Source: Paraspadella gotoi
Taxonomy: Eukaryota; Animalia; Chaetognatha
Assembly: GCA_051294375.1 (NCBI GenBank)
Contig: CM119269.1
Location: 11,882,896-11,946,895 of the forward strand
Length of the DNA: 64,000 bases
Direction: 5' to 3'
In this document: positions 8,327 to 34,900 of the stretch, in pieces
How the letters are laid out: each line of letters opens with the position of its first letter
Numbering within the stretch: the stretch's first letter is position 1
Program-made: the position numbers and the translations under genes
Notes under the pieces: model-generated
Database searches by the model: none
What the model was told of the DNA's origin: nothing
The model's input: only the letters and a program-made list of their open reading frames with translations

Positions 8327-8652
8327 CTTTTATTCAGAGAGAGATTGAGATGAAAAGATGGGGGAAAAGTGTAGTTTGTATGTGCTTTTATAAATGAATG
8401 GATATATTAGTCCTCATGCCAAGGTTGAAACGTAAACATCTCGATGTTAAGGTAATTTTAAGGATCTCGTTGAAAAAGATAAATTAAAATCGTAGTATGG
8501 CATCGGGGTGGACATGTGTGATGCCCGGGTGTGAGGCATCTCCCGACAGCTGGCACTCAGGGCTTTGGACCTGCACTGACCACCACATGTCACTGGCGTG
8601 TTTATGCCAACACCATCACACTTTAACCAGCATGACATTGAGGGGATAGAAC

Positions 8653-10307
8653 TAGGGTTCCGATAACCGTTAATTTTTGAGAAATTTCGATTAACCGTTT
8701 AAAACTAATATTTTAACGGTTAACCGTTAAAATCGGTTAAGTTTATAATTTAACTTGTAGAGAGGGAAACAATTTATTTGTTTTGTTTCAACGAAATTTA
8801 GGACATTTTTTCGGACATGTTTTGAGTCTACAATTAGAGTCTTCATCAGCAATGCTGCAATGATGCTGCAATGCTGATGAAGACTCTAATTGTAGAGTTG
8901 AAACATGTTCTAAAAAATGTCCTAAAAATTCGTTGAAACAAAACAAATAAATTGTTTTTCCTCTCTAAATTGGAAACACAATGAAATCGAAAGTCTTATA
9001 CACAAATATATAATTTAACTTTAAATTTAAAATATTATTATTTAAATCAAACTAAAGTATTTAATAATATTTTATCTTTAACCCTTGCTCCTGAATCTTT
9101 TTTATCTTCCATTTCAGATAGATAGGTAAACATTTTAGTTATTAAATGAAAAATTGGTTTGAGCAAACTATTTTGAATCTACCTATGATAATTTAGCTAA
9201 TTAGATAATGCATCGTGATAAATCTTACTTACAAAACTTTTTTTTTGCCTCATAGCATAATAAAAAATATATAAAAAGAACAAAGAAAGAAAAACCACAA
9301 TGTAATTCTAATTCTATGTTTTGTTTTTTTCTTTCTCTCTCTATCTCTTTTTATTTCATTATATCTCTTCATTATTTTTTAGTTGTTAGTTTCTTGAACG
9401 CTTGCTTTCTGTTTTTATTTTTTTTATAAGCCATAACCATAAATATAAATTATGAATAATAATTTTTTGATTGAAAGTTTGATTGATCGATGATCCAAAA
9501 TTTATTGATTATTAAATATTTTTTTCAGTTTTATTAAAAAATATATCATAATTGAAGGATAGTTTTAGGTTAGCCTTAATGTCCATTTTAAGATTAGTTC
9601 CTTCTATTACTAATTTTTTTTATTACATTTATTTTTATTTAGTTTTTTAATTAATTTTTCATCATTTTGTTTGATTTCATTTGCTTCTTTGTTTGTTTTA
9701 AAGAGTGAAATAAAAAAATAGCAAAAAAAGATATATTATTTTAAATAAGAATTTAATTTGCAAGAAAATGTATTGCAACTATTTGCATGTGCATATATAT
9801 TATATTTCAATATATTTTTGATGTAAATGCGTAAATTTATTGAAAGGAAAAACGAAAAAAAAATTGGGAGAAAATAAGTAAGAAAAAAAACACTAGAAGG
9901 GAAGAAAAAAAAAAGAAAAAGGATAAAAAAAGGGAGAAAAAAAGGAGAGAAGAGAAAGGGGGAAAAGAGGGAGGGAAAAGAAAGAAAGAAAAAAGAAAGG
10001 TACAAAGGGAGATTAGTATTAGAAAAAAGATTAAAAGGGTTTGAAAATAACAAAGGAAAAAAATAGGAAAAAATGGAAAGAGAGAGAGAGTGAAAAATAT
10101 GGTGAGAAAAGGAGAGGAGAATAAGAGAGGAGCAAGATAAAATTATTTTTCTTTTAAAAAATCAAAGATTTTATACCAAAAATAAAAAAATCATATTTAA
10201 AATTAACAGAATTTAACGTTAAACTTAAAATAAATATATTAACGGTTATGTTAAAATTATTTTTAACCGTTAATAACCGTTAACTGTTAACGGTTATCGT
10301 AAACCTA
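8653..10307 (+). mobile_element. hAT-type MITE carrying a hammerhead pair (duplicate at 15715-17371)
   Basis: TIR TAGGGTTCCGATAACCGTTAA / TTAACGGTTATCGTAAACCTA, 8-bp TSD GATAGAAC, subterminal AACCGTT repeats. Confidence 0.9.
8811..8913. ncRNA. Divergent pair of partly degenerate hammerhead motifs (minus about 8811-8853, plus about 8870-8913)
   Basis: Plus strand: CTGATGA-A-GACTCTA-ATTG-TAGAGTT-GAAA-CAT-GTT. Minus strand: CTGATGA-A-GACTCTA-ATTG-TAGACTC-AAAA-CAT-GTC. Confidence 0.7.
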
Positions 10308-13300
10308 GATAGAACCCCGTAATTCACGGTTGGTGAACCAGTATTTAGATGTCAATGGGTCGAACTGAGTTTCATCAAGCTATACGGGAGGCGAATTTAG
10401 GATTCCCACAGTAGTATGATAGAAGCCCTATTTTTTATTTATTTAACTTATTAACAAAATTACGTTACATAGACGTCGCTCAATGTAAATCGTCGAACGA
10501 AAAACAAATGGCTATCGTTTCGTTTTTAAAACTTCTTTCTTATTTCCTAAATAATTTAATCGAATCGGTTTCGTTCATTAATTTTAAAAAGCATAATCTA
10601 ATCTTATCTGATATATTGTTTGCGATTACTTTACCTGGTCTCGACTTTTGGAAAAAAAAAACAAAATCAAAACAATACTTTACGAATACAATACTGTGCT
10701 TCACTCTAATCCCGCTCAACTACAGGTCTATTCAGGTTTCACTCTCTCTCGGTGTGTGTGAAAAAGACCAAAAATGTGGGAGAGTATATGTACTAAAAAA
10801 GGAGGCAAAAAAGGTACAAACTGTGAGAGAGGGAGAGAGAAAGCCGGAGAGGGAGAGAGAAGAAGGTAGAAGAGAAGTCAGAGGAAGAAGTGAAAAACTG
10901 GGTGAGCCTCGATCCCTGGGTGCCGGGAGGAGGAAGAGGAGGATAGTCGCGTGGCTGACGAGACACGAGACTCGCGCTCGGGCTGGTTCGGTCGTCGAAT
11001 ACAATTTTCTCAGTCTCAAAAAAGAGCAATATTAAAAATACATTGATGCTGTAAATGTTACAGAATATTATTTTTAAATTATAAAGTATCAATAAAAGTT
11101 TTATAACCTTTCTATAAGCAAAGTTATCATTTTTATTTACCTGTGGATGTATTATCAGAATCAAGTATCAAACAAGTCCGAACAAAAATTCAAGATTTTA
11201 TTAAAGTGAAAGACAATGAAATATCACATTATGCAGCAACAACTCAAGCCTGGTTTACTTCATAGAGGATCAATCTTTTTTACTGTTTGCTAAGGACCAT
11301 TTTTTACTACAAATCTGATAAAAAATATCATGTCATAGATATAATATTAACAATAATGTGAGTAGTCCACTTAATAAAAAAGAAGTGAAAACAGTTAGAG
11401 ACAACCTCTTTTGGAAGTATTTGAATGCATTAAATAATTTTATGCTGTTGAAAAATAATTATCTATTCAGTCCTAGGGAAGTCATATTACCTATTAAAAT
11501 TTAATTATTAGCCAAAAAATGTATTTGATATTAAAATTAACTGACTTTTCCAAACCGCGACATTTTTTTTCCATCATGACCAGTTAAAGACGCTTAGGAT
11601 TTCAGATCTTAAAAGTTTCCAATAATATTGACAGTATTTATTACACTGTTTTTTTTTAACCATGCAGTCAAAAATTTTCACAATCCTGTTCAGTTTCTAG
11701 TATAATTTTAAGTGCTTAAAACGATTATCAAGGTGTCCTCAATCAGATTTTGCGTTAGACCCACGCACAATTGACCGGAAGTTGACGTTGACTACAAAAT
11801 AGAATGTTTCTCTTTTTTTTAATTGCAAGATAAGAAAATAGTTTTGTAAAAATAATAATTTTTACTTTAAATTTTTTTTTAAAAAAAGGTTCCTACCCAT
11901 AGTGAGCGTATCTAAAACCGGAAATGATACTCAAAAACAGATAAAATACGCAATATTAATAGTTTTTAATCTACTATAAAAATAATCGTTTTTTATAGTC
12001 ATATGATAGTTGTATCACAAAGAATCATCATATATATCATAAAAAACTATCATAGCTCTAAATAGACAAAATAAATATCACTTACAAAAGGTTTGTTTCT
12101 TAATAACTGTTAAAATTCAGAATTAATATTATTTTAAGGAAAAGAAAAGAAAATTAAAAATCTGATTAAGTTTTTGATGCATGGATATTGTTTCTTTTCT
12201 CCTTCACCTGGAAAAAACTTAAAAATAGGGTATTCCTCTAAAGATTTATATAAAACTTTATAAAAAAAGGGTCTAACTTCCAGCTATAGTTTTTGAGCAA
12301 AAAAATGGTATGCCAGTAAAAAAATTACTGATAAAAAAAATTAAATTAGTAAAAGGTATTAAAAATTAAAACCAGGAATTGTTAAAATTAGCAAAGTCTC
12401 ATTAATTGAATGAAATTGAAGTGAAATTTTGAATATTTACAGTTAAAGTTAAAAGTCCTTTGGCTATTAAAAAACGAATCTTTTTAAGATGTAATAATTG
12501 ATAAATAATTAAATATGATAGGATTTTTTTATGATATGGATGATAATCCTTTGTGATAAAGCTGTCATATAATAGCGTTGACGTTTAGTCAATTAACGAG
12601 GGAAATTAATAAGTGGCAAAGTATTTGGTTGACAATAGTTTTATTTATGACGGACAATCATTAGGGTGATGACATAGTTTAATAATTATTTGAAAAAGTG
12701 TTCTTTCTTGAGTTTGGGTGTAGAGATGAATGCCTAGAGTTCTCTTAGCAATTTTGACCATCAATCCCTCCGTCGGTTCCTCTGTCGGTCATTGGTCATT
12801 CTAAGGTTGAAGTAAGGTCTGTGATTGGTCGGCATTCTGATGATTCGTGAAGGAGACGAGCAATCACATCACTAGGCCAACCAAGTCCGTTTATAGGTCC
12901 ATTCCGTTGATGATAGTAAAAAACCTTTAGCAGTCATAATAGATCAAAAACTTTTAATAACACATATTTAATTGATTATCGAGCACTATTTCCGGTTTGG
13001 GACACACCCACTATTGATGAAAACCCTTTTTTGAACATTTTTTGTCTAAGTACTAATTATTAAATAATTATACTAATTGCAGGATAATTAAAAAAAACTG
13101 CCTAACTTTTCATTTGTAGTAAAAAGAAAAATTTCATATTGTAGTCCATGCCAACTTCCGGTAAATTGTGCGTAGGTCTAATGCAAAATCTGATTGACGA
13201 CACCTTGTTAATCGTTTTAAGCACTTAAAATTATACTAGAAACTGTACAAAATTTTCGACTGCATGGTTAAAAAAAAACAGTGTAATATTTATTGATGCT

Positions 13301-14334
13301 TTTAACTTTATTTACGCATATATTATTCCAGAAATTGGCGCGAATTATCGATTGGTTTTTTTTATTCGCGAGTCTCGTCGTCAGCATCGTCTCTGTCTCG
13401 TGGACTATCATCAACATCAATCAACCGCCGCGCCCCGCCTTTCGACGAGGAACGGGATAGGCCAAATTTTGCCAGCCGAGTGCCACTGGCGCCAAGACCC
13501 TGGGACCAATAGAAAAATCTCTAACAGACAATAAACCCCTTTCCATCTTGCTGGATTCTTGCTACACTTTGCGCTTTAAACTCCCATTATGGAATTAAAC
13601 ATTTACTCAGACGCTACTGTTTCGCAAATTATGTATTATGTACGTATACTGTATTATTATTGGTTGAAACTAAGATTTTTTCATCAATGTATGTGTTATA
13701 CATTATAAATATATCATATTTTTGATTTTATAAAATTAACTAACACCTACAAGAAAACCTAGGTACTAGATGATTAAAAGAATAGTTAACAAGAGAGCTC
13801 GATATGGTTAAAAAAAATTGTTGTAGTTTATTAGTGATTATATGACGTATTGATTATGACACAAAGAGTAATGTCAACTAAGAACTTAGTATCTGATACA
13901 GAGGTTAATGTGTTTTTAGATAATTCATCCATGAGTAATAGAGCAGTCTGGTAAATATTTACAAAAACCGATTTACATACAAAATGAGCAACAGCTTAAT
14001 ATTTATAGTGTGTTAAACAAATAAAAAACAAATTACAAGTTAAACAAAAAAACGAAACAATGCCGCACAATTTTAATTAAAACGTGGAAGGACATTGAAA
14101 ACAAAATAAAACCGGAGACTAAAGTGATAGAATTGTTGAGCGCGGAAGTATTGAGTCGTCCAAAAAGACTATAAATTAATTAGTATTTACAACATTTACA
14201 ATAAAAGTGAGTAGACATTCGGTTTCTTCGATCCACGTTGTTATTGTTGTTGTTGTTGATATTCTCTTCAAGTCGGAATCCATGCGCAATAAGAGCATCC
14301 GATTCTCAGTTCAAAATTACTGCAAATTGTTGCA

Positions 14335-17300
14335 TCAAAATTGCTGCAGATTGATGCTGCGCCGCATCCCCATGCATTGAACGTCGTCGATGTAAACAGT
14401 TTGAGATTTGGTCTCGATGTCTTCTTCCAGCGAAAGCTTTTGTCGACGGAGTCCCTTGAATCGAGTAATGATTGGTAAGGTCTGGGTAAGTCACTTCAAT
14501 CTATTGAAATGTAATACATTAGCCACTATATGTTATTTCTTTAGGTCAGGATTCTTTGCTAATAAAAACTTAATTTCGAACAATATTTTCTATTACCTGC
14601 AAACTAGCGAGTCAAAAATAAATCTTGCGATTGGTAACAACATCAGACCAACCGTTCATCAGCGGCCATTGGTGCCGGAGGCAAGTCATTCGCCTCTCAA
14701 CCCAAAGGTTCGGGGTTCTAGCCCGGTGGTCGCGGAGCAGTTAAGAGGGACGGGGCGCTTAACCAGCCTGTAACATGGTGTTACAACCTGATCCGAAGCT
14801 CAGGTACTGCTTATATTGAACGGTTCTGTCACTAACATATAACAATAATTACTGTCTCTTCAAGGCCTCGTTTTAATGTAAATGTTAATGTTCGAACTGT
14901 ATTCTATGTATAAAACTGTTAAAACTTGATTATTGTAATTAGCTACATCCATTATTGTTCTCGGATCGACCTTATTCTAAATAGTCAATACAATAAAATC
15001 CCTGCTGAATCCTTTCAAAAACGGGACACGCTTTGACTGTGACCACCATCCACCACCCTTTCTCGCCCACCATCCCCTAACCCCCCCAACCTTCAACGAC
15101 GCCTCAGATTCCACCAGCCTCGTCTTCAACGCCGTCACGTGACCGTCCAATTCCACCACTTCGTCCACTAGGCGTCTCTCGACGGCGTCGCGACACAACT
15201 CAACGTTAGGGCGCCTCGAACGCGTCTCCAGCCTGGCGCGTGCCAATTTGATGGGCGCCGTTTTGTCGTCGAGGGCGGCGTCGAGGCTTTTAACGTTCTC
15301 CTCCTGATCTATGATCTGACGAAGAGTTTCGGCCAACTGTCCCTCCAAACGAGACTTGGCCTCGCGGGTCTCTTTGATGCGTTGGCTTTTATTCAGAGAG
15401 AGATTGAGATGAAAAGATGGGGGAAAAGTGTAGTTTGTATGTGCTTTTATAAATGAATGGATATATTAGTCCTCATGGCAAAGGTTGAAACGTAAACATC
15501 TCGATGTTAAGGTAATTTTAAGGGATCTCGTTGAAAAAGATAAATTAAAATCGTAGTATGGCATCGGGGTGGACATGTGTGATGCCCGGGGTGTGAGGCA
15601 TCTCCCGACAGCTGGCACTCAGGGCTTTGGACCTGCACTGACCACCACATGTCACTGGCGTGTTTATGCCAACACCATCACACTTTAACCAGCATGACAT
15701 TGAGGGGATAGAACTAGGGTTCCGATAACCGTTAATTTTTGAGAAATTTTCGATTAACCGTTAAAACTAATATTTTTAACGGTTAACCGTTAAAATCGGT
15801 TAAGTTTATAATTTAACTTGTAGAGAGGAAAACAATTTATTTGTTTTTTTCAACGAATTTTTAGGACATTTTTTCGGACATGTTTTGAGTCTACAATTAG
15901 AGTCTTCATCAGCAATGCTGCAATGATGCTGCAATGCTGATGAAGACTCTAATTGTAGAGTTGAAACATGTTCTAAAAAATGTCCTAAAAATTCGTTGAA
16001 ACAAAACAAATAAATTGTTTCCTCTCTAAATTGGAAACACAATGAAATCGAAAGTCTATACAAATATATAATTTAACTTTAAATTTAAAATATTATTATT
16101 TAAATCAAACTAAAGTATTTAATAATATTTTATCTTTAACCCTTGCTCCTGAATCTTTTTTATCTTCCATTTCAGATAGATAGGTAAACATTTTAGTTAT
16201 TAAATGAAAAATTGGTTTGAGCAAACTATTTTGAATCTACCTATGATAATTTAGCTAATTAGATAATGCATCGTGATAAATCTTACTTACAAAACTTTTT
16301 TTTGCCTCATAGCATAATAAAAATATATAAAAAGAACAAAAAAAGAAAAACCACAATGTAATTCTAATTCTATGTTTTGTTTTTTTCTTTCTCTCTCTAT
16401 CTCTTTTTATTTCATTATATCTCTTCATTATTTTTTTAGTTGTTAGTTTCTTGAACGCTTGCTTTCTGTTTTTATTTTTTTATAAGCCATAACCATAAAT
16501 ATAAATTATGAATAATAATTTTTTGATTGAAAGTTTGATTGATCGATTGATCCAAAATTTATTGATTATTAAATATTTTTTTCAGTTTTATTAAAAAATA
16601 TATCATGATTGAAGGATAGTTTTAGTTAGCCTTAATGTCCATTTTAAGATTAGTTCCTTCTATTACTAATTTTTTTTATTACATTTATTTTTATTTAGTT
16701 TTTTTAATAATTTTTCATTCATTTTGGTTTGATTTCATTTGCTTCTTTGTTTGTTTAAAGAGTGAAATAAAAAATAGCAAAATAAGATATATTATTTTAA
16801 AATAGAATTTAATTTGCAAGAAAATGTATGCAACTATTTGCATGTTGCATATATATTATATTTCAATATATTCTTTGATGTAAATGCGTAAATTAATTGA
16901 AAGGAAAAACGAAAAAAAAATTGGGAGAAAATAAGTAAGAAAAAAAAACACTAGAAGGGAAGAAAAAAAATGAAAAAGGTAAAAAAAGGGAGAAAAAAAG
17001 GAGAGAAGAGAAAGGGGGAAAAGAGGGAGGGGAAAAGAAAGAAAGAAAAAGAAAGGTACAAAGGGAGATTAGTATAGAAAAAAGATTAAAAGGGTTGAAA
17101 ATAACAAAGGAAAAAAATAGGAAAAAATGGAAAAGAGAGAGAGAGGTGAAAAAATATGGTGAGAAAAGGAGAGGAGAATAAGAGAGGACAAGATAAAATT
17201 ATTTTTCTTTTAAAAAATCAAAGATTTTATACCAAAAAATAAAAAAATCATATTTAAAAATTAACCGAATTTAACCGTTAAACTTAAAATAAATATATTA

Positions 17301-19561
17301 ACGGTTATGTTAAAATTATTTTTAACCGTTAATAACCGTTTAACGTATGTTTAACGGTTATCGTAAACCTAGATAGAACCCGGAATTCACGGTTGGTGAA
17401 CCAGTATTTAGATGTCAATGGGTCGAACTGAGTTTCATCAAAGTACGGGAGGCGAATTTAGGATTCGCCACAGTAGTATGATAAGAAGCCCTATTTTTTA
17501 TTTATTTAACTTATTTAACAAAATTACGTTACATAGACGTCGCTCAATGTATCGTCGACGAAAACAAATGGCTATCGTTTCGTTTTTAAAACTTCTTTCT
17601 TATTTCCTAATATAATTTAATCGAATCGGTTTCGTTATTAATTTTAAAAAGCATAATCTAATCTTATCTGAATATTTGTTTGCGATTACTTTTACCTGGT
17701 CTCGACTTTTGGAAAATAAAAAACAAAATCAAAACAATACTTTACAATACAATACTGTCTTCACTCTAATCCCGCTCAACTACGAGTCTATTCAGGTTTC
17801 ACCATCCTCTCACCGAAACGCCTCGTCCACGTTGCTCCTCTGCTTCCGCATGTCGTTGCAGGTCTGCCCCAGCACTCCGTCCACGATGGAGCGAAGTTTG
17901 GTGGAGTTTCCCCGCTCTCGCTCCGCCGCTTCGATGTTCTTGTGACTGAAATCGATCCATTCCGCAGGAGACACGGAAGAGCGAGGGGGGCCTGGATTAT
18001 TAAGGGGAGTTGCGATTATTTAACTAATACGCTTTTTAGAATAATACTCAATTATTATGTTACCCGGTGGGGTTCCTATGGCAACCAAAGGACTTGTGTT
18101 GGTCAAAGAGACACAGAATTCGTCCAACGATTGACCCTGAAGTTTGTCGGCCAAATCTTTTTCTAGATGAAACTGAGATCGTCTGTAAACAAGGACAAAC
18201 ACGTTGATTGTGTTGATAATCTTATTAATTTATTTATTTATTTAATGCGGTTATTATTTATCTAGGTTGTACCAATTTCTTAATGAAATTAATGATTAAA
18301 AATCAACCAGTTAGTGTTTTACTCGATAAATTTAAGCCCTTTTGCCTCCTGACTTTGATAGATCCTACATCATTCTTACAAGATATTGACTGTTTAAATA
18401 GTTATTATAAAATTAATTAAACTTAATCAACGACTTAATTCTTTGTGACGAGGGTCTCCAAAGTAGAACCTCTCAAGCTTTCATTCAATACTCCCTCATT
18501 CTTTAATGAAATTTAGTTTTAATCTTTCTTTTTTATCCTGTTTTCTTTATTTTCTTCACTTTTTAATTCACTTTCTTCCACTTTCGTTTATCTTTTTTTC
18601 CCCACTCACTCATTACACTTATTGAAAAATCTTTTTATTATAGTATATATTTTATTAAAATATTTTATTCATAAACAATATCGTACAATGTATTTTGCAA
18701 TATACTCAATTATTCATATCCCCTCACTTGTTGAGTCTGACTTGCTCGGCGACCTCGTCGTGCGTCCGCTTCAACAACTCCATGACTCCCCTCAACACCT
18801 CCACTTCCTTCATTAACTCCTTCTGGACATTGTCGTGCGCCAGGTCGACTCCGCGCCGACCTTCCCGGTGGACGAGGCAGTTCTGGGCGATGGAGAAAGG
18901 CTCCGCCGTCGACTCCAACGCCTTCTCCACGCGAATCTTGTAGGCCAAGAGGGCTGGCGTTGGGAAGAGAGAGAGAGAGAGCAGAGAAAGAGAAAATATA
19001 TTATGAATATGCAGAAAATTGCAAATTTACTTCTTTTACTCATTTAAATTTAATTTTTCCACAAATAATAAATTTAATTATTTGATTTTATACATTATTT
19101 ATACGAGATGGAATGATGAATAAATAATGAATAAATGATGAGAAATGTCGAACATTCACCAGTAAAGGACGTCACAGATAATTTAGACATAGACGATGAT
19201 ATCAGTGATATTACAAATACCAATAATATCATTGGTGATGTCATAGACCCCGATAACATCCACGATCACATATAACAACACCAGATGACTCACCTTCAGT
19301 CTCTCTCCTCAATCCATCCAGTTTATCGTCCAATTCTTCTTTCCAAAATCGAATCTCTTCGATCCGCTGCCGCAGCTTCTGCGAGACGTCGGACTGCGTC
19401 CGCCGGACCGCAGCAGCCGCCGCCGTCGACGCTCTCGTCGACTCCGCGATCAGACGCTGCGCCGTCGAACGCTCCGCGGCAGCGGACGTCGTCTTCCGCG
19501 CGTTGGAGACGTGCCATTCCTGAGGCGTGAAACGTTGCGGCGGGGCGACTAGCTTCGCCAT
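14335..19561 (-). CDS. TEKT1: Tektin-1 (6 exons, about 401 aa)
   Basis: Exons 19561-19294, 18953-18728, 18182-18064, 17991-17814, 15385-15091 and 14454-14335 have GT-AG boundaries in consistent phase (1206 nt). The protein has the tektin signature RPNVELCRD, a TEKT1-like N-terminus MAKLVAPPQRFTPQEWH and a TEKT1-like C-terminus YIDDVQCMGMR. Confidence 0.93.
15557..17472 (-). mobile_element. Solo LTR of a second tRNA-module TRIM family, split by the hAT MITE (duplicate at 8496-10410)
   Basis: Removing 15715-17379 leaves about 250 bp reading TGTGGC...GCCATA on the minus strand, flanked by GTAG. It aligns by eye with the 28192 LTR in the terminal hairpin, B box and central hairpins. Confidence 0.65.
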
Positions 19562-20397
19562 GGTGTTGTGAGAGAGAGAGTAGAGGGAGGGAGAGAGAAA
19601 GAGAGAGAGTTTTTTACAAGGCTGTTCAAACAATTACTTGCCTTAATTAATGACAAGAGCTGAAAAAGAAAAACATAAATACGTGGATTTAATGTTAGAA
19701 TTCTTTTTTCAAATCTAAATTAATGAGAATGACCGTATTTTTCGACAGTTAGGATGTTTTTAATCCAACCAAAAAAAATCTCGAATCGGCTTATATGTCG
19801 TGTTATGGCGACGACCTCGGTTGCTAAGCAGTCAAATGCCCTCGGTTCATTTCTCAGAGTCTCCGACAAAAGCCTCAAGTCACGAAATTCGATTCCGAAA
19901 ATTCGAGACTTTTTTTCTTGGATCGAAGGTTAAAACTTTGATCCCTGAAACGAAAATGTCGGGAAATCCGATTCTTTTTTGGAAGAACTGATTAAAAGTT
20001 GGGCGAGAAATTTGGATTTAATTATGAAGAGTTTTTGGGGACAGTTGACGTGTTTTCTTTCTCTTTTTTTAGAAGTAATGATAACAATTTACTGCATGGA
20101 GGTCGCAGATTATATCCTGACTGACTTTGTTCAAAACTTATCGATTTAATTTGAAAAATCGTAATGGCATTTTATTATCAGTGCGAACAAGATATAACGT
20201 TTCCGTCATGAAATCCATTTTATGAATTTGGTCAGATTATTAATTTATCATCTTCCTGAAGAATCTTGATTTTTTTTAATTCCATTAGATTTAGTACAAA
20301 GTTAGTTATCTCTGGAATTGTCAGTAAACATCCTAAACGTGGTATAAATAATAAAAAGAATAAAACATAATAATAAAAATAAAAATAGACTAATCAT

Positions 20398-23217
20398 TCA
20401 ACAAGGGAACGAAGGAGTTTCGGCGACGTGCCCTCTCAGCGCTTGAGCGTTGAGTCCCAAAAACACGTGCTTTCTTCCTGTGGCCACGGTCGCGCGCAAA
20501 TCGAGAGCGCGTTCGGGAAAAGTCTCGTTGAATTTCCGATGGGCGTGGCTCTTGCGGAAACCGTTTTCCAGCGTTGACAAAATGGATTGGGGCCGCGGTA
20601 CTCCGGAGCCAGGACGCCAAGAGCATCGCCAATCGAGCGTGTGTCTAGGAAATAAAGTGCTGAGACAGAATTAAGACCTAATTTTTACCTTACCTTTTTA
20701 CTCACCTGTTGACGTCGTGTTCCGGAGCTGACAGATTAAAAATTCTAGGGTTTGATTCTTCGTCTCGCGGTTCCATCGAGTTTCGTGGCATGGTGTCATT
20801 GTCGATAGAATGTAAGGTCTCCGCTTTGAAGTCACAGTTCTAATGGTGACATAAAAATGAAAATTGATAATTACATACTTGTTTCACCAAACTTTTACAG
20901 ATTTTAAAATGTCAAGTATGTAATGTATGTATGCCTAAATCCTTTTTTTAAATTAATTTTTCTTTTTATTTTATCATCCAATATTAAAATTCATATATGA
21001 AATAATATTGTTTTACTTTAATAGTAAATAGAAAAAAATTAATTTGTCAACATTGCACAATTTAACATAATTTAACAACCTTAAAAAGATTGTCTTCGGC
21101 TTTTTTATCTCCTTGAATCATCCTTTCCGGCAAACGATTGGGATTAAGTTTCAATTCATCCCTCGTTTGCCTGATTCCGGACGAATGCTTGCCGGATTTC
21201 AACGCGAGTGCTTGCTCAACAAGCTCGAGAGCCGGACCAGGATTGGCGAAGTAATCCAGCTCCTTCCATCGAGGATCTCTGAAGCAAAAAATAGACCAAA
21301 TAGACCATCTTGTCACGTGAGATGTGAACTTTATCAAAGTTTTAACCTGTAAGGCGGCGTAGGTAGGTTAACGTACTCTCTGTCATACAACAGCCATCTT
21401 TCTTGCTTTTCAGTGACAGACTCTTTCTGTGAAATGTCACGAAAGACATTTTGGTTCACGAATTTCCATCCTACGTTGAAAGAATGATTTTGAGGCTTGG
21501 CAAATCGGTTGCCTTATTTTCAATTTCATTTTAAATAATTACGTACCATTTAACGTTTTAGACTTTCTTCCCTCCATGGGCGTGGATGGAATGAAGGTTG
21601 CAACGGACCGTGGATATAAAGCATCGGGTTGAGGTTGGTAAGTTTCACCCATCGGGTCAGTTTCCGAATCTCTCATCAGACTGGCTCGAATTTTGTCGTC
21701 CAAATTATCGATTTTCATTGGATTAGTTGGTCCGTAACCTATATGTAGAAGAAATTTTCAATTAATCTAAATACAGCGAAAAAAATCCTCATCAATTAAG
21801 ACTTATTATTTTCCCTCATTTTAAATTATTAAATATGAATGCTGGTTAATTACAAATTATTCAGTAATATTTACTAAATTTACAAACTAAAAATTTTTAC
21901 TTAATTCCAAGTATTATTTACGTAGTATATAAACAAACCAGTAAAGTTGATCGAGTAAACAGGCAGCCAATGACTTCTCTCTATATTCCTCAACGCGTTG
22001 GCGGATTTCTGAGAAATCCGTCGAGAGGGCGGCCTCCCGTCCGCGTTCGGCGCCAATCGTTTCGTCGGAATCGGGTAAAAGATTTGACGACCGCCTTTAC
22101 GGGAATAAAGAGCAATTTAGAGTTTTACTTTTACTGTGTATATGAAAAATATTAATAATAAAAAATAAATAGATAAAAGATGAATAGTAGTAATAATAGA
22201 TATAGTATTTATTACTTAATAAATAGAATATATAAAAAAAATTAAATAAATAAATAAATAAAATAAACAAATTGGTTAATCAATATATAAACACAGTTTT
22301 CACTGGTGTTGCGATTAACTCTCACCGTCTGGATGTTTGAGCAATTGGAAAAAGTTTTTGTCCGCTTCTTGCAAATGACCCATTTTTAGCGAATCCGGGA
22401 AAATCGTCTCTATCTCTCTCCGATGACCGAATCCTTTGATTTTTTGAACGACGAGGGTCGACGGACCTCTTTTCGCCGCTAGGGGTAAGTGAAGAAAAAA
22501 AGAACAATAAATATGACAAGAAAGAGACAAAAAGACAGCAGATGGATAGAAAGACAAACAGTCTTTTAACTTAATATATAAGATAAGATATACAAACAGA
22601 CATATATCGGCAGACTAAGCGACTCTTCAATTTCTATTCTTCCCAAGTTGAGGCCGCCGAAGCATATCCCGGATTTAGAATTAGATTCGTGATTTAGGAT
22701 TCGGATTAAGGATTTAGATTTACCCGTCGGATGCAACGGAGGCGAGCGTTTGGCCTCGTTCCCGCGTCGAGGATCGTCCGGAGAATCGAAATTAGGCAAA
22801 ACGTCTTTCAATGGGACGTGAGAAAAGTAAGGATGTTCGGCCGGAAACGGGAGATCGATTGCAAAGTGACTCATTGCTGCCTCTTGCGGCTTTGGCAGAA
22901 GCTGGTCGTTGAGCCGCAACTTGCTTCGTTTCAATTTCGTCAGTTGATATGCCTTGGTTTTGTAAAATGAGAAATTACCGATTAGTACATATTATATATA
23001 ATAAAATACATTGGCTAATGGCTATATTGGTTTTTTTCCACCCAGCACAAACTTGTTCAGCGGGCAATCCACCGTGATGCCAAGTAGGTCGATTACACGG
23101 ATTCCATATTTCCTCGGGTTTCATTCTCGGACCTATGAAATGTTTGTCAGTGCCCCAGTCAGGAAACCGGGTCAAAAAGTGCCCGATCGGCGCCAAAGGC
23201 AAAGGAAGTGACGTCAT
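20398..23217 (-). CDS. SPMIP4: C7orf31/SPMIP4-like sperm or ciliary microtubule inner protein
   Basis: Exons 23217-23053, 22952-22724, 22478-22326, 22094-21939 and 21738-21547, further exons at roughly 21.5-20.7 kb (boundaries unresolved), and a last exon ending at 20398. Motifs LPAEQ-YQLT, LPFPAEHPY, RNIERSHWL...FTGYGP and C-terminal LENGFRKS...DLR...GRKHVFLGLN match human C7orf31 as I recall it. Confidence 0.75.
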
Positions 23218-25835: not shown

Positions 25836-27347
25836 AAATATTTAATTTTTTTTTTGGTACAAGTACATACTTGGAGTTGTATCACTAATAAGTCTAAAAT
25901 AAACTACTCTACACATTTTCCAGACGGGTTTTTATACTTTTATGAGTTTTATGAGTTAAAAAACTTATCGAATTTAATTCAATTTGACTTTTTACTTTAT
26001 GTAAATGTTTAATGAGTTTAGAGTACAGAATTGAACTTTCTTGACGAAGTGATGTTAAAAATGAAAAGTTGCAGCTCAAACCGTTGGATTCTTCTTGAAG
26101 AAAAAAATATCTTGGGCTAGAAAGGAAAGGTGGGGGAGATTCTATGAGCGCGTTTTTTAAAAAATGTTTTTCGTTTCAAAGATATCAAGGAATTAATCCC
26201 AAAAATTGATTAAAATAATCAAATTTTATATGAAGGAAGGCAAATTTTGAAAGTATCTTTTCATAGAATTGGAGTTCGTGACCTAAAGGTAATTCATACT
26301 AAATTTCATGAGAAACCCCCTTACCGTTTGGGCTGCAACTCTTCAAATAGGTTTCTTTTATTTTATATAGTACAAAAAAAATCGAAAAAACGATGACGCC
26401 TTTGAAAAAATAGTAAAGTGAATACATTTTCGGAATCGTCAGGAGCTCTCCTTTCGAAATCCGAGCTCAGTTTTAGCCTAATTATAATTAGAATTGAGTG
26501 ATCCCGGACCTTAAAAGTTTTCGATTATTTTTTAATAGGAAACCTCTTACAAGATGTGAGAAAATGATTAAGATACAGTAAATTAAGATTTCTACAATTT
26601 TAGGTTGAGTGATATCTGGCCTTGAAGAAATGGGAAGAAAAAGAAATATATACGGAAGAAAGAGAATAAAAACCTCAATTAGAAACAGACTCCTTGAAAA
26701 AAAAAATTAAGAGAAAGAACTAAAAAGAAAGTAGAGTGGAGATGACAGTTGGAAATGAGAATAATTACGAAGTATCGAAGGGAAGGAACTAAAAAAAATC
26801 TAGTCGACTCTGAGAAATGATTTATTAATTTGATTTATTTTGAATATCCGGGAGTACTTGTTCACTAGACACTAGTGTCACTACTCGGTATTCCGAATGG
26901 TTTTCTGCACTTAAAATTGAGCAATAGATTAGAAAGAATAAATTCTTCAAAAAAAATTTAAATTGCTCTTTTCAACAATTAATAAACTTTTCATATGTAT
27001 TATTATTAAGCAGACTGTCGGTGACTCCCCCAATCTTTCCTCCCTTTCCTTTTTTATGCTTTTTTCTCTCTCGTGACATCTCCGGCGCAGACAGAGACAG
27101 AGTGCATACGAGTGATGTTCATTTGTCTTTTGTCCGGATGGTGGCGTCATCTCCAGTCCGACCCTCGCAACGAAGCATCAACATTTTTCTCATTCGCGTT
27201 GCCGGGGAAACCCGTGAAAATCGTTACATCTCCGTCGGAATGCCGCTAAAATAATACTCTTAGTTTGTAAATTTATTGCAATACTACATAAGGAAATGAC
27301 TCTGGAACTTTGTAGTCAATAAATCGATTTTCAAATTTACTTTAAGG

Positions 27348-30300
27348 ATGTTCACGGTCCAACGGAGCCTCGGCTCGGCCGTGTCCAAATCTATTCGTCT
27401 GCAGCGAGATGAGACGATTTATTCCCTTCGGTTGTCGCAAAGATTCTGGTCTAAATCCGACGCCAAATTCGGAGCGGGTCGGTGGAACCGATCCTTCGCG
27501 AGCGGGACTTACGTTCGAATCGGTTACGCCGCCGTCGGATCTTCGGTTGCCGCCCTCCTTGTCGCCGAAACTTTGCGTAAAAATCACGCGGTTTTCTCGG
27601 CAAAATTGAAAAAGAGAGACGATATCTTGGAACAGGCTGGACGCGTTCATTCGGGACTTCCCGAGTACAAGATGGAACAGGTTCGTCAGCACGACAGCAT
27701 GGAACATCGGTTCTGGGTCACCTACAAGGACGGCGTCTACGATATCACGGATTTCATTCGGAAAGGAAATCATCCCGGAGGCGACAAGATTTTCATGGCC
27801 GCCGGCGGCTCGGTCGAGCCTTTTTGGCAATTGTACGCCGTCCACAAGGACAATCCTGAAATCCTAGCGATGCTCGAGGAATACAGAATAGGAAACCTCG
27901 CTGTTGAAGACAGGTTGGGCTGTCGTTAATTTTAAACCTCTCGGCCGTCTATGGGATAAGTATTAAGCATTAAGCATTAATTATTATTATTAAGCACTAA
28001 TTTTTAGTTGTCTTGACTAAATATTTAAGCAATCATTTTCAAAAAAAAATTATATTATATGTCTTGATTAATACATTAAATATTACTTGTCTTTTTTAAC
28101 ATTATCAAAATTTTTTTTGGAAATCTTAAAATTTTTTGATAGATTCTGATAGAGCATTAAAAGTTAAACAAGAAATATACAGCTTTTACGTTGAAGAGAC
28201 AGTAATTATTGATAAGTGTTAATGACAGAACCGTTCAATATAAGCAGTCCCTGAGCTTCGGATCAGGCTGTAACACCGTGTTACAGGCGGGTTAAGCGCC
28301 CCGTCCCTCTTAACTGCCAGACGACCACCGGGCTAGAACCCCGGACCTTTGGGTTGGGAGGTGAATGTCTTGCCTCCGGCACCAATGGCCGCTGATGAAC
28401 GGTTGGTGGATTTTAGTCCACCATACATCCCCCCCTCCCGTAGGGAGAAGTCTGTTGCGTCTCTTCAGTGAATTGTTGTTGTTGGTGGAAAGTTTGTCAC
28501 CAAGTTGAGGCATGTCGCCTGATCTGTTGTGGGCGGAAAGTGCATCGCCAGGTTGAGGCATGTCGCCTGAAAGTGTTGTTGTTGCTGTTTGTGTTCGGAA
28601 GTCGGGCTCACCAATGAAGAGACAGTAATTATTGATAAGTGTTAATGACAGAACCATTCAATATAAGCAGTCCCTGAGCTTCGGATCAGGCTGTAACACC
28701 GTGTTACAGGCGGGTTAAGCGCCCCGTCCCTCTTAACTGCCAGACGACCACCGGGCTAGAACCCCGGACCTTTGGGTTGGGAGGCGAATGTCTTGCCTCC
28801 GACACCAATGGCCGCTGATGAACGGTTGGTGGATTTTAGTCCACCATAACGTTTTCTATGTGAAAATATAAAAAAAACTGATAAAATAATCGAAATATGA
28901 TGATGATGATGATTTTTTACGGTTTTTCTTATTTTTGACTCATCATGAAAATATTTAAAAAAGAATTATACTTTGTGTAGACAACTTTTTATGAGCTATC
29001 TGAATCTGGTTTTAAAATTCAAAAATTATCAAAACAAATTTTGGCCTTTCCTATTTATAAATAAATATTAAAAAATTAATTATTTGGGTATAGAGCTACA
29101 TAAGAAATGTTTTGTCCATTGAAAGTATACTTAAAAATGTATAAATTTTTGTTTGAGGATATAATCATTCTAAATTTTTGATTCACTCCATTGAGTGGGG
29201 CTACCCCTAATTATATTTATTTTTAACAAAATATTAAGTGTTATATTTTCAAATATATTTAAATTTTTTTTATTAAAGAAAAATTAAAGAGCAATAATTT
29301 CTCGTAAATTTTTTTTCGAAGTCTAGATCATTCATTGTTGTAAGGTTCCTAGTAGGAGTCTACGTCGTTCTTAGAGATCGAGAAAGACTTTTTCAATGGA
29401 GATTTTCGTTCAAATCTGACTACCAAACAATATAAACGCTCCTGGTAAAAATTCTGGTAAAATATGGATGTAAAAACACTTGATTCCGATCCTGTTGCAT
29501 CTGAAGGGCTCGCATTTTTTTCTCTTGTCAAATCATCAACATCTTGATATCAAACAAGCCAGAACAAATAGACTGCTTCTGGACGGAAAAATTTTCCATC
29601 TCTGATTTTATATAGAAATGAAAAAGATTTTTTTCCTTGAAAACGATATGTTCCTGTTCAATAAAAGGGCTCTCAAAATTTTTCTTTACATTTTATTAGG
29701 TTATTTTGATATGATACGATCATGGTAAAGTGAATTAGTCCATTTTGGTGAAATTTTTATTTAAAGTAAAAGTAAAAGAGCTAACGATCGGAATTCTAAG
29801 AGTTTTCAACCGGTAGTCAGATTCGGAAAAAACTTCTATGGCGAAAATCTTCCAAAGAAGGGGTGAATTTTCCGAAGATTTTGGTTAATATTTTCTATAT
29901 TTATAGTCGGATTTTTTTGAAACTTAATATTAACAATATTGCCATCATTCTACCTTGGCTGGTATAAGAATATAACCTCGGGCTTTGTTCGTCAGAGCTT
30001 ATTCCTATTCTTAGCTATTCTTTGGTAAAGAAAGACATTTTTCCGTAGGCCGCTGTAGGCGAAGGGATTTAAAATTTAAACTCGTCACAGGTTGGAAAAT
30101 GCAAAGCAGCTTTCTGAGATGGAAGCGAATAATCCCTACGCGGGAGACCCCAAGCGTCACCCGTTGCTCCGCCCGGCCTCGACGACCCCCTTCAACGCGG
30201 AGTCTCCGCCATCCATCCTGGCCGAGAATTTCTTGACTCCCAATGAGTTTTTTTACGTGAGGAATCATCTTCCGGTTCCTGATGTCGCCGCCGATGAATA

Positions 30301-31276
30301 CGAGTTGGAAATCGAGGTCGAGGGTCGCAAAGACGTCAAGACTTTGTCCCTCAACGACTTGAAGACAAAGTTTCCCAAGCACACCGTCATGGCGACCATT
30401 CAGTGCGCCGGAAACAGACGCTCCGAAATGAACGAGGTTAAAAAAGTCAAGGGTTTATCCTGGGGCAGGGCCGCGATCGGCAACGCCTCTTGGAGCGGGG
30501 CCAGCCTGAAGGACGTCTTGAAGTTGGTCGGAGTCGAAGAAGGAACTTGTGGCTCTTGGAAACATCTTCATCTCGACGGTTTAGATCAAGGCCCCGACGG
30601 ATCCCAATACGCCGTCTCCATTCCCTTGTCCAAAGCCTTAGCCGCTTCGGGCGACTGCATCTTGGCCTACGAGATGAACGGCGAACCCATTCCTCGCGAC
30701 CACGGGTTTCCCGTTCGGGCAGTGGTGCCGGGCACGGTGGGGGCGAGAAACGTCAAGTGGTTGGGACACATGAAAGTGGCCCAAGAGGAAAGTCGAGGTC
30801 ATTGGCAAGCCAACGATTACAAGGGTTTCTCTCCTTCCGTGGATTGGGACACGGTGGACTTCGACAAGGCTCCCGCCATTCAAGAGCTCCCGGTGCAATC
30901 GGCCATTTGCGAACCGGAAGACGGTCAGAAGGTAGAGATGGATTGCGAGGGAAAAGTGTCGCTCAAGGGATACGCGTGGAGCGGTGGCGGTAGAGGCATC
31001 GTTCGAGTCGATGTTTCCGTCGACGGGGGAAAGACGTGGCAAGTCGCGGATTTAATCCAAAACGAGTGTCAGGAATACAATAAGAGTTGGGCCTGGACAT
31101 TGTGGAAGCTCAAAGCCGACGTAGGAAAGGGAATCAAGTGTGGAGATTGTCTCAAGGTTTGCGTCAAGGCCGTTGATTCTTCTTACAATACTCAACCCGA
31201 AGAGTTCGGGCCAATATGGAATCTGCGCGGGGTCATATCTAATGCTTGGCACAAGATCGTGGTCTTTGTTAAATAG
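27348..31276 (+). CDS. SUOX: Mitochondrial sulfite oxidase (2 exons, about 583 aa)
   Basis: Exons 27348-27913 and 30091-31276 join in frame. The protein has a basic presequence, a cytochrome b5 domain (WVTYKDGVYDIT...HPGG), Moco motifs FYVRNH, QCAGNRR, DHGFPVR and GARNVKW, and C-terminal WNLRG. Confidence 0.96.
28192..28848 (-). mobile_element. Complete TRIM with a tRNA-like module in each LTR (Helenus-like)
   Basis: LTRs 28848-28615 and 28425-28192 are 234 bp each with 3 differences seen. PBS TGGTGAGCCCGAC (28613-28601), PPT GGGAGGGGGGGA (28439-28428), TSD ACGT. Confidence 0.92.
29353..30007 (+). mobile_element. MITE with TAGG...CCTA ends and 7-bp TSD (other copies at 38024-41672 and 56014-56735)
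   Basis: Flanks are TTCCTAG/TTCTTAG here, GGTTATC at the 38024 copy and AATAAAC at the 56014 copy; internal sequence is shared. Confidence 0.75.
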
Positions 31277-31539: not shown

Positions 31540-31766
31540 TGAAGAGACAGTAATAATTGTTATTAGTTAGTGACAGAACCGTTCAATATAAGCAGTCCCC
31601 GAGTTTCGGATCAGGCTGTAACACCATATTACAGGCGGTTGAAGCGCCCCGTCCCTATTAACTGCTTGGCGACCACCGAACTAGAACCTTTGGGTTGGGA
31701 GGCGAATGACTTGCTGATAATGATGATGGCCGCTGATGAACGGTTGGTGGATTTTAGTCCACCATA
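31540..31766 (-). mobile_element. Diverged solo LTR of the tRNA-containing TRIM
   Basis: TGAAGAGAC...CCACCATA with flanks ATAC/ATAA and internal deletions. Confidence 0.85.
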
Positions 31767-31981
31767 ATAAGATAATTATTATAGGCGAACTCGCCTACTA
31801 CTGGGATGTTTTTGCTGGTTTTATGCATTTGTTCGTTGGCTTTCTTGCTCTTTTTTTGCTGCGAAGAAATAGTGATACTATACGTAACTTTTTTAACTTT
31901 ATTTTTCCAGAAAATAACAGCCAAAGATCTTGAAAGGAAACTGAATCTCCTCCTTTTATTTCGATCTGATTTACCAATGAC

Positions 31982-34900
31982 ATGGCTACACCGAAACTCT
32001 TTACCAGCGCCTCTCTTGTACAAAAACATCGTTTACTCAATCGGTTTTCCAATTGTCACGTTTGCTGGAGAAAGTCAAAGACGACGTCGTCCGTGTTGAC
32101 GCATGAGGCGAGATTCAAAGCGGACGGCGCCGATGAGACCAACGATCGAGACCGACCCGTCTCCACGCCGCCGCCGCCGCCGCCGAAGACGACGCAGCAG
32201 CCGCCACTGGGTCGAAAATTCGAGCCACTCGACCCCGACCCTTACTTCGATAAAATCGACCTGAGTTTTTCCAACACTCGCGAAAGCTTCCGCAGCAAGT
32301 CGACCTTCCAACTCATTCGCGCGGTCTTCGTCTTCAAAATGTGCGCCATCGACTTCTTCGTCGACAATAACAAGAAACTGTTGAAAGTCGGACGCACTAT
32401 TTTGGGTCGGCGTCTTTTTAACAAAGCGATGAAAGCCACCATTTACGGACAATTCGTCGGCGGAGAAGATAAGACGGACATCCAAGAGACGATCACCAAA
32501 AATATGGCCTTTGGTGTGAAGAGCATCTTGGACTACAGCGCCGAGGAGGACATGTCCAGCGCTAAAGTAAGGTCGGGAATGGTTGGGTTGGATACGCTGG
32601 CTTTTTATCGTCGCAATCGCTTAGCGTTTGCGACGATATTGTAACACTTTTGCGCATAAGTGGCGTCGTCGTCGTCGTTGGCGTCGTCGTCGGCGTTCCA
32701 AATTATAGATCGCCTTTTTTATGATTAAATTTGTGTGTATGAAACTGATAATTTATATACAGCTTCTCATCATCGATGTGCTTAAAATTGAGTCTGGACA
32801 GTTATTAAATATGTTTTGGTTACGTTTCATCAAAACAAACAAATTTTTTCTCTTTTATTTTCATATTTCTTTCTCTCTCTCTTTTCTCTTTTAATTACAT
32901 GTCTCTCTCCTTCTCTCTTTTCACTGATTCATAGAGAAAGGAAAAAAACGAGTCTGCAGCTGGCTCTGCAGGGGCTTATTCTTTTTCTCTCTTTTCTCCT
33001 GCTGCTTCTGCTGCTGCCTTTTGATTTCTTTCTTTTTTTCTGGGTGCCTCTGCTGCTGAAAACGATTTGACTTCTTTCTCTCTCTCTCTCTCTCTCTCTC
33101 TAAAAACTTTTATTATCGCCATTTATTCCCAAATTTACATCCGAGATTTTTGTGGATTTTTTTTCCTAAATATTCTAAATAGCAATCAGAATAATAATTT
33201 TTTTAATATATATTTACTTTATTATTTTATTTTACTTTATTTTACTTCACTTTAGTCTTTACTTCACTACGTCAGTCTGATTCAAGTTTCACTTTGTCTT
33301 TTGTCTGGGAATGTTGACAGTGTTAAGAGAGGTCGCATTCGTTCAAACTGCTCGCTTATGCGTGCTTAAAGTAAAACAAAAATACCTTCAATAATGTTAC
33401 TTCAGTCTTAGCACTTGTTAAAAATTAAACTCGAAAATAAGTTATTTTACTGTTTTATATTTATACTTTTGACAATGAAAAAGTTTTTTTTTGGTTTTTT
33501 TGGTTTTTTTTCCAGAAACTGTAACTGTAAATTGACAATCGCAATATAGAATTTTTCTTTGTTTATAAATTAATTTTCTTTTTTCCTTTTTATTCTTTCT
33601 TTCCTTTCTTTACTTTCTATTCTTTCTTTCCTTTCTATTCTTTCTTTCCTTTCTATTCTTTTTTTCTATTCTTTCTTTCTTTTCTATTCTTTATTTATTC
33701 TTTTCTTCTTTTTCTTTCTGTTTTTTTTTTAGTATCAAAATTTGTCGTCAATCCAGATTTTTCTTATGCGATTGCGACGATCCTTATGCTTTTAAGATTT
33801 TTTTTATCTCGCCAGACGGGCTAAAGGCGAGATTAAGGATCGCCTCTTCTTCTTTGTGACTGTAGTCGTCGTTATTCTATTCTTCTTCATCGCAAATTGT
33901 ACTTATAATTCTCTTTCTTTCTTTCTCTCTCTTTTAATTATATGTCGCTCTCTCTCTCTTTTTTTCTGTTGCTGCTTCTTCTAATTCATTTAAAAACGAG
34001 TTCAGCTCTGCAGCGGCTGTCCAGCTTCTCTTTTTATCATCGCAATCGCTTTGCGTTTGCGATGTTGTGTAGTAGTGCGTGGCGTAGTTGTCGTCTTTGT
34101 CGTCATCGTCGTTCAAAATTATAGAGCCAAACTTTGTCAATGGGGTGGGTCAGAAGTTTGATTTGGGAACCTTCCTAAATAAAACTTCATACATTTCTGA
34201 GAAAACTTTCAATGGACCAAATTTTTTTAAAATGGCTAGAAGCATTAGTAATTAATTTTTTAATATTTATTTATCGATGGGAAATGTCAAAAAAAATTTT
34301 TGGCATTTTGTATTTTTAAAAGCAGATTCAGATAGCTTATAAAAGTTGTCTATACAAAGTATAATTTTTTTTTTCAATATTTTGATAATAAGTGGGTCAA
34401 AATTGGGAAAAACCTGAAAAAATAATCCTCATCATCATCATCCGATAATTTTAGTAGTTTTTGCTCATTTTTAGTGACAAAAAGTTGTAATTTTATTTTT
34501 AGACTAACTTTTTAGGCTCTATCAGAATCAATTAAAAAAACTTAAAATATATAAACAAATTTTTTTATATTATATAACAAAATAATAATTTTAATTAGCG
34601 AATTACTCATGGTTCGGAACATTTTTGCAAAAAAATATTTTAACACAATAACTAATACCAATAATGGATTAGTTTAATACTGTTCCCATTAAAATTTGAA
34701 TTTGGTCGGCTACCGCTATTATAGATCGCCTTTTTCATGATTAAATTTGGGTGTATGAAGCTGAAAATTTATATACAGTTTATCATCATCATCATCATCA
34801 GGACAGTTATTAAATGTTTTGTTTATGTTTTATCAAAACAAACATATTTTTTTTATGTCTCCTCTCTCTCTTTTCTCCTTAATTATATGTAGCTCTTTCT

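Follow-up and report, generated by a model that had tools for sequence, protein, structure and literature searches.

A candidate twister ribozyme beside a tRNA-like module in the long terminal repeats of a small animal retrotransposon

Results

The 64-kb stretch of animal DNA analysed here (the window; G+C = 33%) carries a non-coding long terminal repeat (LTR) element of 657 bp on the minus strand (28192-28848), inserted antisense within an intron of a sulfite oxidase gene whose flanking coding stretches lie in 27300-27929 and 30080-31276. The element is under 1 kb long and encodes no mobilisation protein. Its parts are:

28615-28848, minus strand: 5' LTR, 234 bp, termini TA...CA
28192-28425, minus strand: 3' LTR, 234 bp, sharing 98.7% identity with the 5' LTR
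28188-28191: left copy of the target-site duplication (TSD), ACGT
28849-28852: right copy of the TSD, ACGT
28601-28613, minus strand: primer-binding site (PBS) TGGTGAGCCCGAC, one T after the 5' LTR, the single match in the window
28428-28439, minus strand: polypurine tract (PPT), followed by TG and then the 3' LTR
28426-28614, minus strand: internal region, 189 bp
28570-28552 and 28522-28504: two copies of a 19-nt word in the internal region
28396-28404, minus strand: 5' arm of a 9-bp clamp, pairing with 28237-28229; the folded 5' LTR copy shows this pairing
28404-28423, also 28846-28827, minus strand: 7-bp hairpin at the 5' end of the LTR

These boundaries bear out the original prediction of a 657-bp element with 234-bp LTRs, a PBS, a PPT and a 4-bp TSD: the two LTRs differ at 3 positions, and ACGT stands at both ends. 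The PBS TGGTGAGCCCGAC agrees at 12 of 13 positions with the honey-bee tRNA-Trp site in Fig. S2A of Kojima 2024 (PMC10886601), which confirms the earlier count. In all full copies the LTR starts with TA, not TG; a TG sits between the PPT and the 3' LTR (28427-28425), as if a helper trimmed two bases off a TG-starting end. The duplicated 19-nt word of the internal region is a possible packaging signal. The claim that the element has no credible open reading frame holds in that a 115-codon stop-to-stop frame has no Pfam match, but within it lies an ATG-initiated frame of 83 codons (28561-28310), which was rejected as a gene because the enclosing frame is without such a match. The sense strand contains no run of four T (T4), the first one lying ~30 bases beyond the element.

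Each LTR contains a degenerate tRNA-like module:

28321-28392, minus strand: module of the 3' LTR, with a 7-bp acceptor-like stem, an A-box-like word (28384-28373), a B box from 28340 and a T-arm
28744-28815, minus strand: the same module in the 5' LTR

The acceptor-like stem, both box words (A-box-like and B-box) and the clamp formed by AACCGTTCA and TGAACGGTT all lie where they had been predicted. In the 5' LTR the 3' arm of this clamp carries a single change. The clamp had been described as surrounding the tRNA module, but a ribozyme-like fold lies within it too. The B box fits GGTTCNANNCC in sense orientation; the A box has the TRG and YGG of the TRGCY...YGG of Helenus elements and lacks the CY; the T-arm is out of register by one base; and in the predicted fold the acceptor stem and T-arm form, whereas the D and anticodon arms do not. 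Among 200,000 shuffles, 2,551 contain a B box, 346 a T-arm in addition, 6 also a 7-bp acceptor stem, and none an A-box-like word as well, by criteria fixed after the sequence had been inspected. The predicted module for RNA polymerase III (Pol III) thus beats shuffled sequence (6/200,000), but it is degenerate and escapes the standard tRNA finders: ARAGORN reports 0 tRNA genes in the window, Rfam no tRNA in two element copies, and a model derived from 18 tRNAs of phage T5 gives 11 matches at E up to 10, none of them on the sense strand of the module. Likewise, blastn of the module against phage records detected no tRNA. A functional tRNA gene was rejected, there being no intact cloverleaf and ARAGORN, Rfam and the T5-tRNA model all being negative. 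Judged by its letters, the module is a degenerate promoter-type relic, as described for Helenus, and Pol III would likely start near 28815 in the 5' LTR.

Directly 3' of the tRNA module, each LTR holds a stretch that can be read as a ribozyme:

28243-28318, minus strand: type-P5 twister-like ribozyme of the 3' LTR, 76 nt
28666-28741, minus strand: the same ribozyme, identical, in the 5' LTR, with a predicted cut at 28717^28716

From 28318 to 28243 the order is a P5 strand, a short linker, a P2 strand, GA, CGG, a 6-nt linker, UAA, CCC and GC, followed by a hairpin of 8 bp, a stem of 4 bp with A-U at its top enclosing U-CCG-AA-GC, and the second P5 strand. This gives a P5 of 7 bp, a P3 of 8 bp, a P4 of 4 bp plus the A-U pair, and the pseudoknots T1 (CGG/CCG, 3 bp and A.A) and T2 (GC/GC, 2 bp), in which all pairs are Watson-Crick. 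Both catalytic bases are present, namely the A at the U^A site, where the cut in the 3' LTR is predicted (28294^28293), and the general-base G (28305), followed by A. The minimum-energy fold of the LTR contains P3, P4 and P5. P1 is replaced by the self-complementary 6-nt linker GGCGCU; by arithmetic, linkers that pair with themselves when G.U pairs are allowed make up ~5% of 6-mers and ~2% of 8-mers. In comparison with type-P5 twisters (RF02684; PMC8501958, PMC5408937), the fold shares the segment order, U^AA, the general-base GA, T1 with its 3 bp and A.A, the GC/GC of T2, the spacing of P4 and L4, and the optional P3 and P5; it is unlike them in the A-U atop P4 in place of G-C, T1 CCG/CGG, a weak P2, the reduction of P1 to 6 nt and the lack of an Rfam score.

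A permissive descriptor was composed from the layout in Table 1 of Liu 2021 (PMC8501958), the geometry given by Gebetsberger and Micura and the Rfam consensus line. It matches the LTR once, on the sense strand and as type P5, and 123 of 831,029 dinucleotide shuffles match it in any permutation or on either strand, 29 of them as P5. On the 64 kb it has five matches, three in LTR copies and two in the copies of an unrelated twister (A1 at 8603 and 15665), which Rfam afterwards scored as Twister-P5 (22.3 bits, E 0.007; under the gathering cut-off of 37.6). That the descriptor also picked out this second twister counts in favour of the one in the LTR. Among the metagenome matches listed, loose thresholds let 2 of 119 loci with the bare motif form P4, P2 and P5 as well; a P3 of more than 6 bp occurs in 0 of the 10 bare-motif loci with a P4 stem. 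A tight version of the motif finds two viral loci, neither with the stems, and a version of the CCG/CGG motif with a 4-nt P2 gives no descriptor match among the matches listed. The LTR fold is in all likelihood a true twister, and it probably cleaves.

Within the window, blastn finds nine LTR copies and one internal region. Apart from the LTRs of the element itself, these are:

53692-53925, minus strand: solo LTR, 98.3% identity, TSD TTAC, ribozyme core intact
50237-50471, minus strand: solo LTR, 97.0%, TSD ATAC, one P2 change
49224-49459, plus strand: solo LTR, 91.5%, TSD CTGT, T1 broken
60896-61127, plus strand: solo LTR, 90.2%, TSD GTAT, T1 and P2 changes
31540-31766, minus strand: solo LTR, 83.8%, flanks TTAT/GTAT, general-acid A lost
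14647-14862, duplicate at 7586-7802, plus strand: 5'-truncated LTR, doubled by a 7-kb tandem duplication

Both LTRs of the element and the most similar solo LTR preserve the ribozyme core, which is changed in the other six LTR copies; in every full copy 33 bp precede the tRNA module. The five full-length solo LTRs with 4-bp repeats were correctly predicted (four exact, one with 3 of 4), so that an exact duplication is found at five of the six insertions with both termini and three of four matching bases at the remaining one, where identical 4-mers at that spacing would be expected by chance at 0.0087 each. The two truncated LTRs, formerly counted as separate copies, occupy both arms of the 7-kb tandem duplication and are therefore one insertion. 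Similarly, a family said to be abundant and young is indeed present in many copies, and this copy is young, but the other LTR copies have an identity of 84-98%.

External evidence for the family comes from contigs of sequencing runs, of which nine runs of organism A (among the 12 listed) contain 46-71% of the sampled words. Contigs aligned on the LTR alone number 16,663 in run X2, 2,144 in X7, 989 in X9 and 2 in X10, the last being from organism B. Loose contig ends cluster at 28191/28192, 28425/28426 and 28849, which indicates that the LTR termini are fixed. Other copies sharing the internal region, proposed as a check on the original prediction, do exist: variant letters occur there in dozens of contigs per run, and both LTR junctions are bridged by pieces. 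Moreover, a single contig from organism B runs from 28501 to 28652, takes in the PBS and thus places the internal-LTR junction in a second organism. No contig spanning the whole element was found among the run contigs, and the exact family pattern occurs at 0 loci in metagenome contigs. Summed contig depth across the element is much above that of one flank, which is no measure of copy number. Since the PBS has no variant listed in the contigs of four runs and is one base off the bee tRNA-Trp site, the host tRNA may differ. The seven common variants across runs either miss the core, sit in the P3 loop or replace G.U by Watson-Crick pairing in P5 and the acceptor stem; those at 28321 and 28324 convert acceptor-stem G.U pairs to G-C. 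Among the minor LTR variants listed for X2, 21 of 30 are C>T or G>A, as the decay of methylated copies would lead one to expect.

Discussion

We regard it as virtually certain that the element belongs to a real and abundant family of TRIMs (terminal-repeat retrotransposons in miniature) of the Helenus type. Like the Helenus elements, or TRIMp3 (Kojima 2024, PMC10886601), it is a non-coding TRIM of <1 kb with a degenerate A/B-box module in each LTR, a PBS and a PPT, and like animal Helenus it has a 4-bp TSD and a PBS for the 3' end of a tRNA, both common to Gypsy. The PBS is of the Trp type with a 1-nt spacer, as in Helenus-2_SyJa and Gypsy-32_NVi, and the B box, T-arm and acceptor stem fit Helenus, whose B box is GGTTC and whose A box is TRGCY...YGG. 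The earlier assignment to the Helenus kind, by TSD, Trp PBS and module, therefore stands. None of five element words of 8-10 nt occurs in Data S1 of the same paper (a motif search over wrapped lines), which suggests that the element is not one of the families listed there. In the accessible text of that paper, Pol III transcription of Helenus is expected and unvalidated, and no ribozyme is described (twister has 0 mentions, hammerhead appears in one reference title only). Many of the Helenus LTRs inspected have a T-rich run after the tRNA, whereas the element here has the twister fold in that place and an LTR that starts with TA. The reading as a parasite with a Pol III module, probably helped by Gypsy, was sound as regards a non-autonomous LTR element of the Helenus kind, but it missed the twister-type fold. 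A tRNA-bearing TRIM by itself is already described; the novelty rests on the overlooked fold, which likely changes the replication mechanism.

We lean, if only slightly, towards the view that the element is a Pol III-driven animal LTR retrozyme. Transcription by Pol III would begin in the 5' LTR, at its tRNA module, and would read through, since T4 is missing from the sense strand; both LTR twisters would then cut at U^A and leave an RNA that ends in 5'-OH and cyclic phosphate and lacks a terminal repeat:

28294-28716, minus strand: predicted unit RNA, 423 nt, consisting of one permuted LTR and the internal region, with no terminal redundancy

A host ligase would circularise this RNA, and the reverse transcriptase of a Gypsy helper, primed at the PBS, would copy round the circle and rebuild both LTRs, after which integration by the helper integrase would create a 4-bp duplication; from shorter products, solo LTRs could arise directly. 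The helper would probably be of the Trp-primed CsRn1 lineage of Gypsy, to which the Trp PBS and the 4-bp TSD point, CsRn1 being defined by a Trp PBS and having a 4-bp TSD as a rule. In plant retrozymes, a unit without repeats is handled by circularisation, and reverse transcription round the circle yields solo, full and multimeric products (Cervera 2016, PMC4918200). It is tempting to speculate that within a single transcript both ribozymes may cleave jointly, as the 6-nt replacement of P1 is self-complementary.

Plant LTR retrozymes (PMC4918200; PMC7761336) are a close parallel to this proposal, sharing the 4-bp TSD, a self-cleaving motif in each LTR, a non-coding interior with PBS and PPT, a Gypsy helper and the lack of R. 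They differ from the element in host (plant, not animal), in ribozyme (type III hammerhead, not twister), in primer (Met, not Trp), in unit length (600-800 nt, not 423) and in having no internal tRNA-type promoter; furthermore, circles are shown in plants and predicted here. Rfam finds no hammerhead in the element, where the twister-type fold would take that role. A search of Data S1 of PMC10886601 with six hammerhead-core words gave 8 places, two of them in the LTRs of the gall-wasp elements Helenus-2_SyJa and Helenus-2_SyUm. By eye, these LTRs contain a type III hammerhead directly 3' of the tRNA module, with the core CUGAUGA...GAAA, three stems and a 12-bp loop-loop complement, which the accessible text of the paper does not mention. 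These two hammerhead-bearing entries also hold the Trp PBS word and resemble the element in their 4-bp TSD and in a ribozyme-like motif within ~25 nt of the tRNA module, with a different ribozyme and no evident sequence similarity. Insect type III hammerhead elements may be known to specialists, a 2020 review having announced work in preparation on them. In the same data set, Ajax-1_NGe-LTR and Ajax-1_LiLo-LTR share a 12-nt word with the twister cut-site segment; ACGG stands before it and a long hairpin after it, no L4 is seen, and the word is possibly half a twister relic or due to chance.

In Schistosoma, the Perere-3 twister variants (Liu 2021, PMC8501958) are likewise twisters that process retroelement RNA, and the Pol III hammerhead repeats (PMC6765202) combine a tRNA promoter with a ribozyme in tandem units, but both are non-LTR and without PBS, PPT or integrase-type ends. 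In the parts of the reviews that bear on this, animal retrozymes are without LTRs, PBS and PPT, and the polymerase that transcribes retrozymes is given as not known. Neither a twister in an LTR element nor an animal LTR retrozyme appears in the titles or abstract openings of the literature searched, in which few subscription journals are covered, and the PBS word brought up no related title among the matches listed. A self-cutting ribozyme with LTRs has so far been described only in plants, with a different ribozyme. If the fold cuts, the element unites Helenus and the LTR retrozymes, two classes described separately, extends the defined roles of twister ribozymes in retrotransposition to two, and offers a way for an LTR-internal promoter to regenerate complete LTRs, with solo LTRs as possible direct products. 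More tentatively, and at a little under an even chance, we suggest that animal LTR retrozymes exist as a class: Trp-primed and Gypsy-dependent, they would combine a tRNA-type Pol III promoter with an interchangeable ribozyme (twister, or type III hammerhead in gall wasps) and make small RNA circles, and a self-complementary P1 could restrict cutting to two-LTR transcripts. Further ribozymes would then be predicted to lie hidden in published TRIM libraries, where the two Helenus entries appear to hold them.

Several observations, some on RNA folding and others on the ribozyme core, weigh against this proposal. In the lowest-energy fold a competing hairpin takes up the T1 and P2 strands, with P3, P4 and P5 kept, at -29.0 kcal/mol vs -19.0 for the twister's nested pairs (A-U pair and pseudoknot energy excluded). 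Two phage twisters that carry T1 CCG/CGG and pass the Rfam cut-off, L495 and L418 (46.3 and 40.4 bits, among at least 120 viral loci), have largely native predicted folds, unlike the LTR copy. Moreover, the ribozyme stretch folds no better than its shuffles (z -1.35), and the predicted 423-nt circle is 52% paired (z -1.9; 1/60 shuffles as stable), whereas >70% is quoted for retrozyme RNAs. The lack of a T4 run is shared by 3,952 of 20,000 shuffles and is thus weak evidence for read-through. One alternative, which we consider unlikely, is that the twister cuts but chiefly makes the 3' end of a linear RNA that begins at the tRNA start of the 5' LTR and stops where the 3' LTR is cut, without any circle. 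The 5' ribozyme would often be trapped in the competing hairpin, and a terminal repeat of ~99 nt would suffice for ordinary strand transfer. Besides the predicted hairpin and a circle that is not unusually structured, this explanation draws on the missing T4 terminator, which leaves the element in need of another way of ending, and on the 5' arm of the clamp, which lies upstream of the presumed start, so that the two LTR copies would fold in different contexts. However, the ribozyme sequences are identical in both LTRs and both would be fully transcribed, and in plant elements with the same anatomy circles do accumulate.

As for the core itself, P2 in the LTR amounts to two regular pairs and either a mismatched C.A or a bulged A, where a stem of 3-4 bp is expected. 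This is a genuine weakness, although imperfect P2 and P1 are reported as tolerated in the relevant part of McKinley 2024. An interval of 3 nt from UAA to GC is itself common among phage twisters, in which 73 of 82 P4-bearing parses (from 117 parses at 109 viral loci) pair all 3 bp of P2. Phage type-P5 twisters (L152-L260) show strong covariation in their 3-bp P2 and occur several per contig (L160/L161, L177/L178, L227-L230, L237). The top of P4, with a U.A pair around L4, has the geometry of type P5, but A-U stands where G-C is conserved, and no convincing natural twister with this exchange was found (0 of 16 viral loci match Rfam). In favour of the fold, T1 CCG/CGG also occurs in L495 and L418, and the available rice-twister data of Kobori and Yokobayashi give relative activities of 0.85 for G23A/C32U and 0.86 for C27G/G47C, the double changes equivalent to those in the LTR, compared with 0.24 for C32U alone and with a G47C row in whose first 66 cells nothing exceeds 0.24 except position 27; the authors caution that large rate losses are masked by the relative-activity measure, and the figures are for separate swaps in the rice twister, not for the combination in the LTR. 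Rfam has no twister match on the LTR copy at E up to 10; its P5 consensus has no P3, and its structure line is without the pseudoknot pairs. In addition, the descriptor was composed after the motif was seen, and among eight distinct window copies 0 pairs are changed on both sides, the copies being too alike and partly decayed for covariation to appear.

These points bring up a plain Helenus-type TRIM, replicating from a Pol III transcript as Cassandra and Helenus do, whose downstream block would be a dead ribozyme relic or a set of chance hairpins. The missing Rfam match, the imperfect P2, the competing fold and the lack of covariation all fit it, as does the absence of a hammerhead or twister core from most published Helenus consensus sequences in a motif search. 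We nonetheless hold it to be somewhat less likely still than the linear RNA: the descriptor is matched by only ~1.5 in 10,000 shuffles, both departures in the paired core are compensated on both sides, each being active in mutagenesis, and the core is preserved in the two LTRs as well as in the nearest solo copy.

It is improbable, by contrast with the Pol III-driven retrozyme favoured here, that the element is a ribozyme-processed LTR element read from host genes by Pol II, with the tRNA-like module as a passenger or an RNA-structure element. Ribozymes do relieve an element of the need for its own promoter, and the A box unlike the TRGCY of Helenus, the T-arm out of register by one and three tRNA searches that miss the module would agree with such an origin; but the B box fits GGTTCNANNCC in sense orientation, and the copy at 28192-28848 is antisense within the sulfite oxidase intron, so that the ribozyme strand would be absent from the host pre-mRNA. 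Finally, a tRNA-derived short interspersed nuclear element (SINE) of 234 bp, paired by accident into a two-repeat element, is largely refuted and hardly credible in spite of a tRNA-like head and of solo units exceeding the two-LTR form in the window, given the fixed termini where contigs also end, the exact 4-bp TSD in 5/6 full-terminus insertions, the PBS and PPT at canonical places and the internal-LTR junction in a second organism (X10), and the rejection of a SINE rests further on a tRNA head that lies 33 bp inside every full copy, not at its 5' end, and on the lack of a simple-repeat tail or of long, variable TSDs.

Other features of the window

The remaining features of the window are:

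27300-31276: sulfite oxidase gene
31970-32644 and 56821-57651: probable proline dehydrogenase gene
14977-19633: tektin gene
22566-22991: SPMIP4-like gene
59678-60043: gene for a Kelch protein
3716-10742 and 10760-17802: 7-kb tandem duplication, 98% identity, covering tektin-like exons, the truncated LTR and the second twister
8549-8630, duplicate near 15612-15692, minus strand: second type-P5 twister, unrelated to the LTR element, with canonical L4 and a 4-bp P2
36162-37384, 33534-33776 and 45220-45521: tandem arrays with 22-bp and 9-bp periods

The sulfite oxidase is ~56-62% identical to named proteins of arthropods, vertebrates, cnidarians and sponges without distinction, and 69-73% identical to six unnamed ones; that its named relatives top out at ~62% suggests a poorly sampled animal lineage. 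The 7-kb tandem duplication is either genuine or the result of two alleles assembled in series. In the unrelated twister, the short P1 linker of 8 nt is self-complementary when G.U pairs are allowed. A repeat family at 8653-8996 adjoins the 5' side of this twister, which possibly belongs to a Penelope-like tail.

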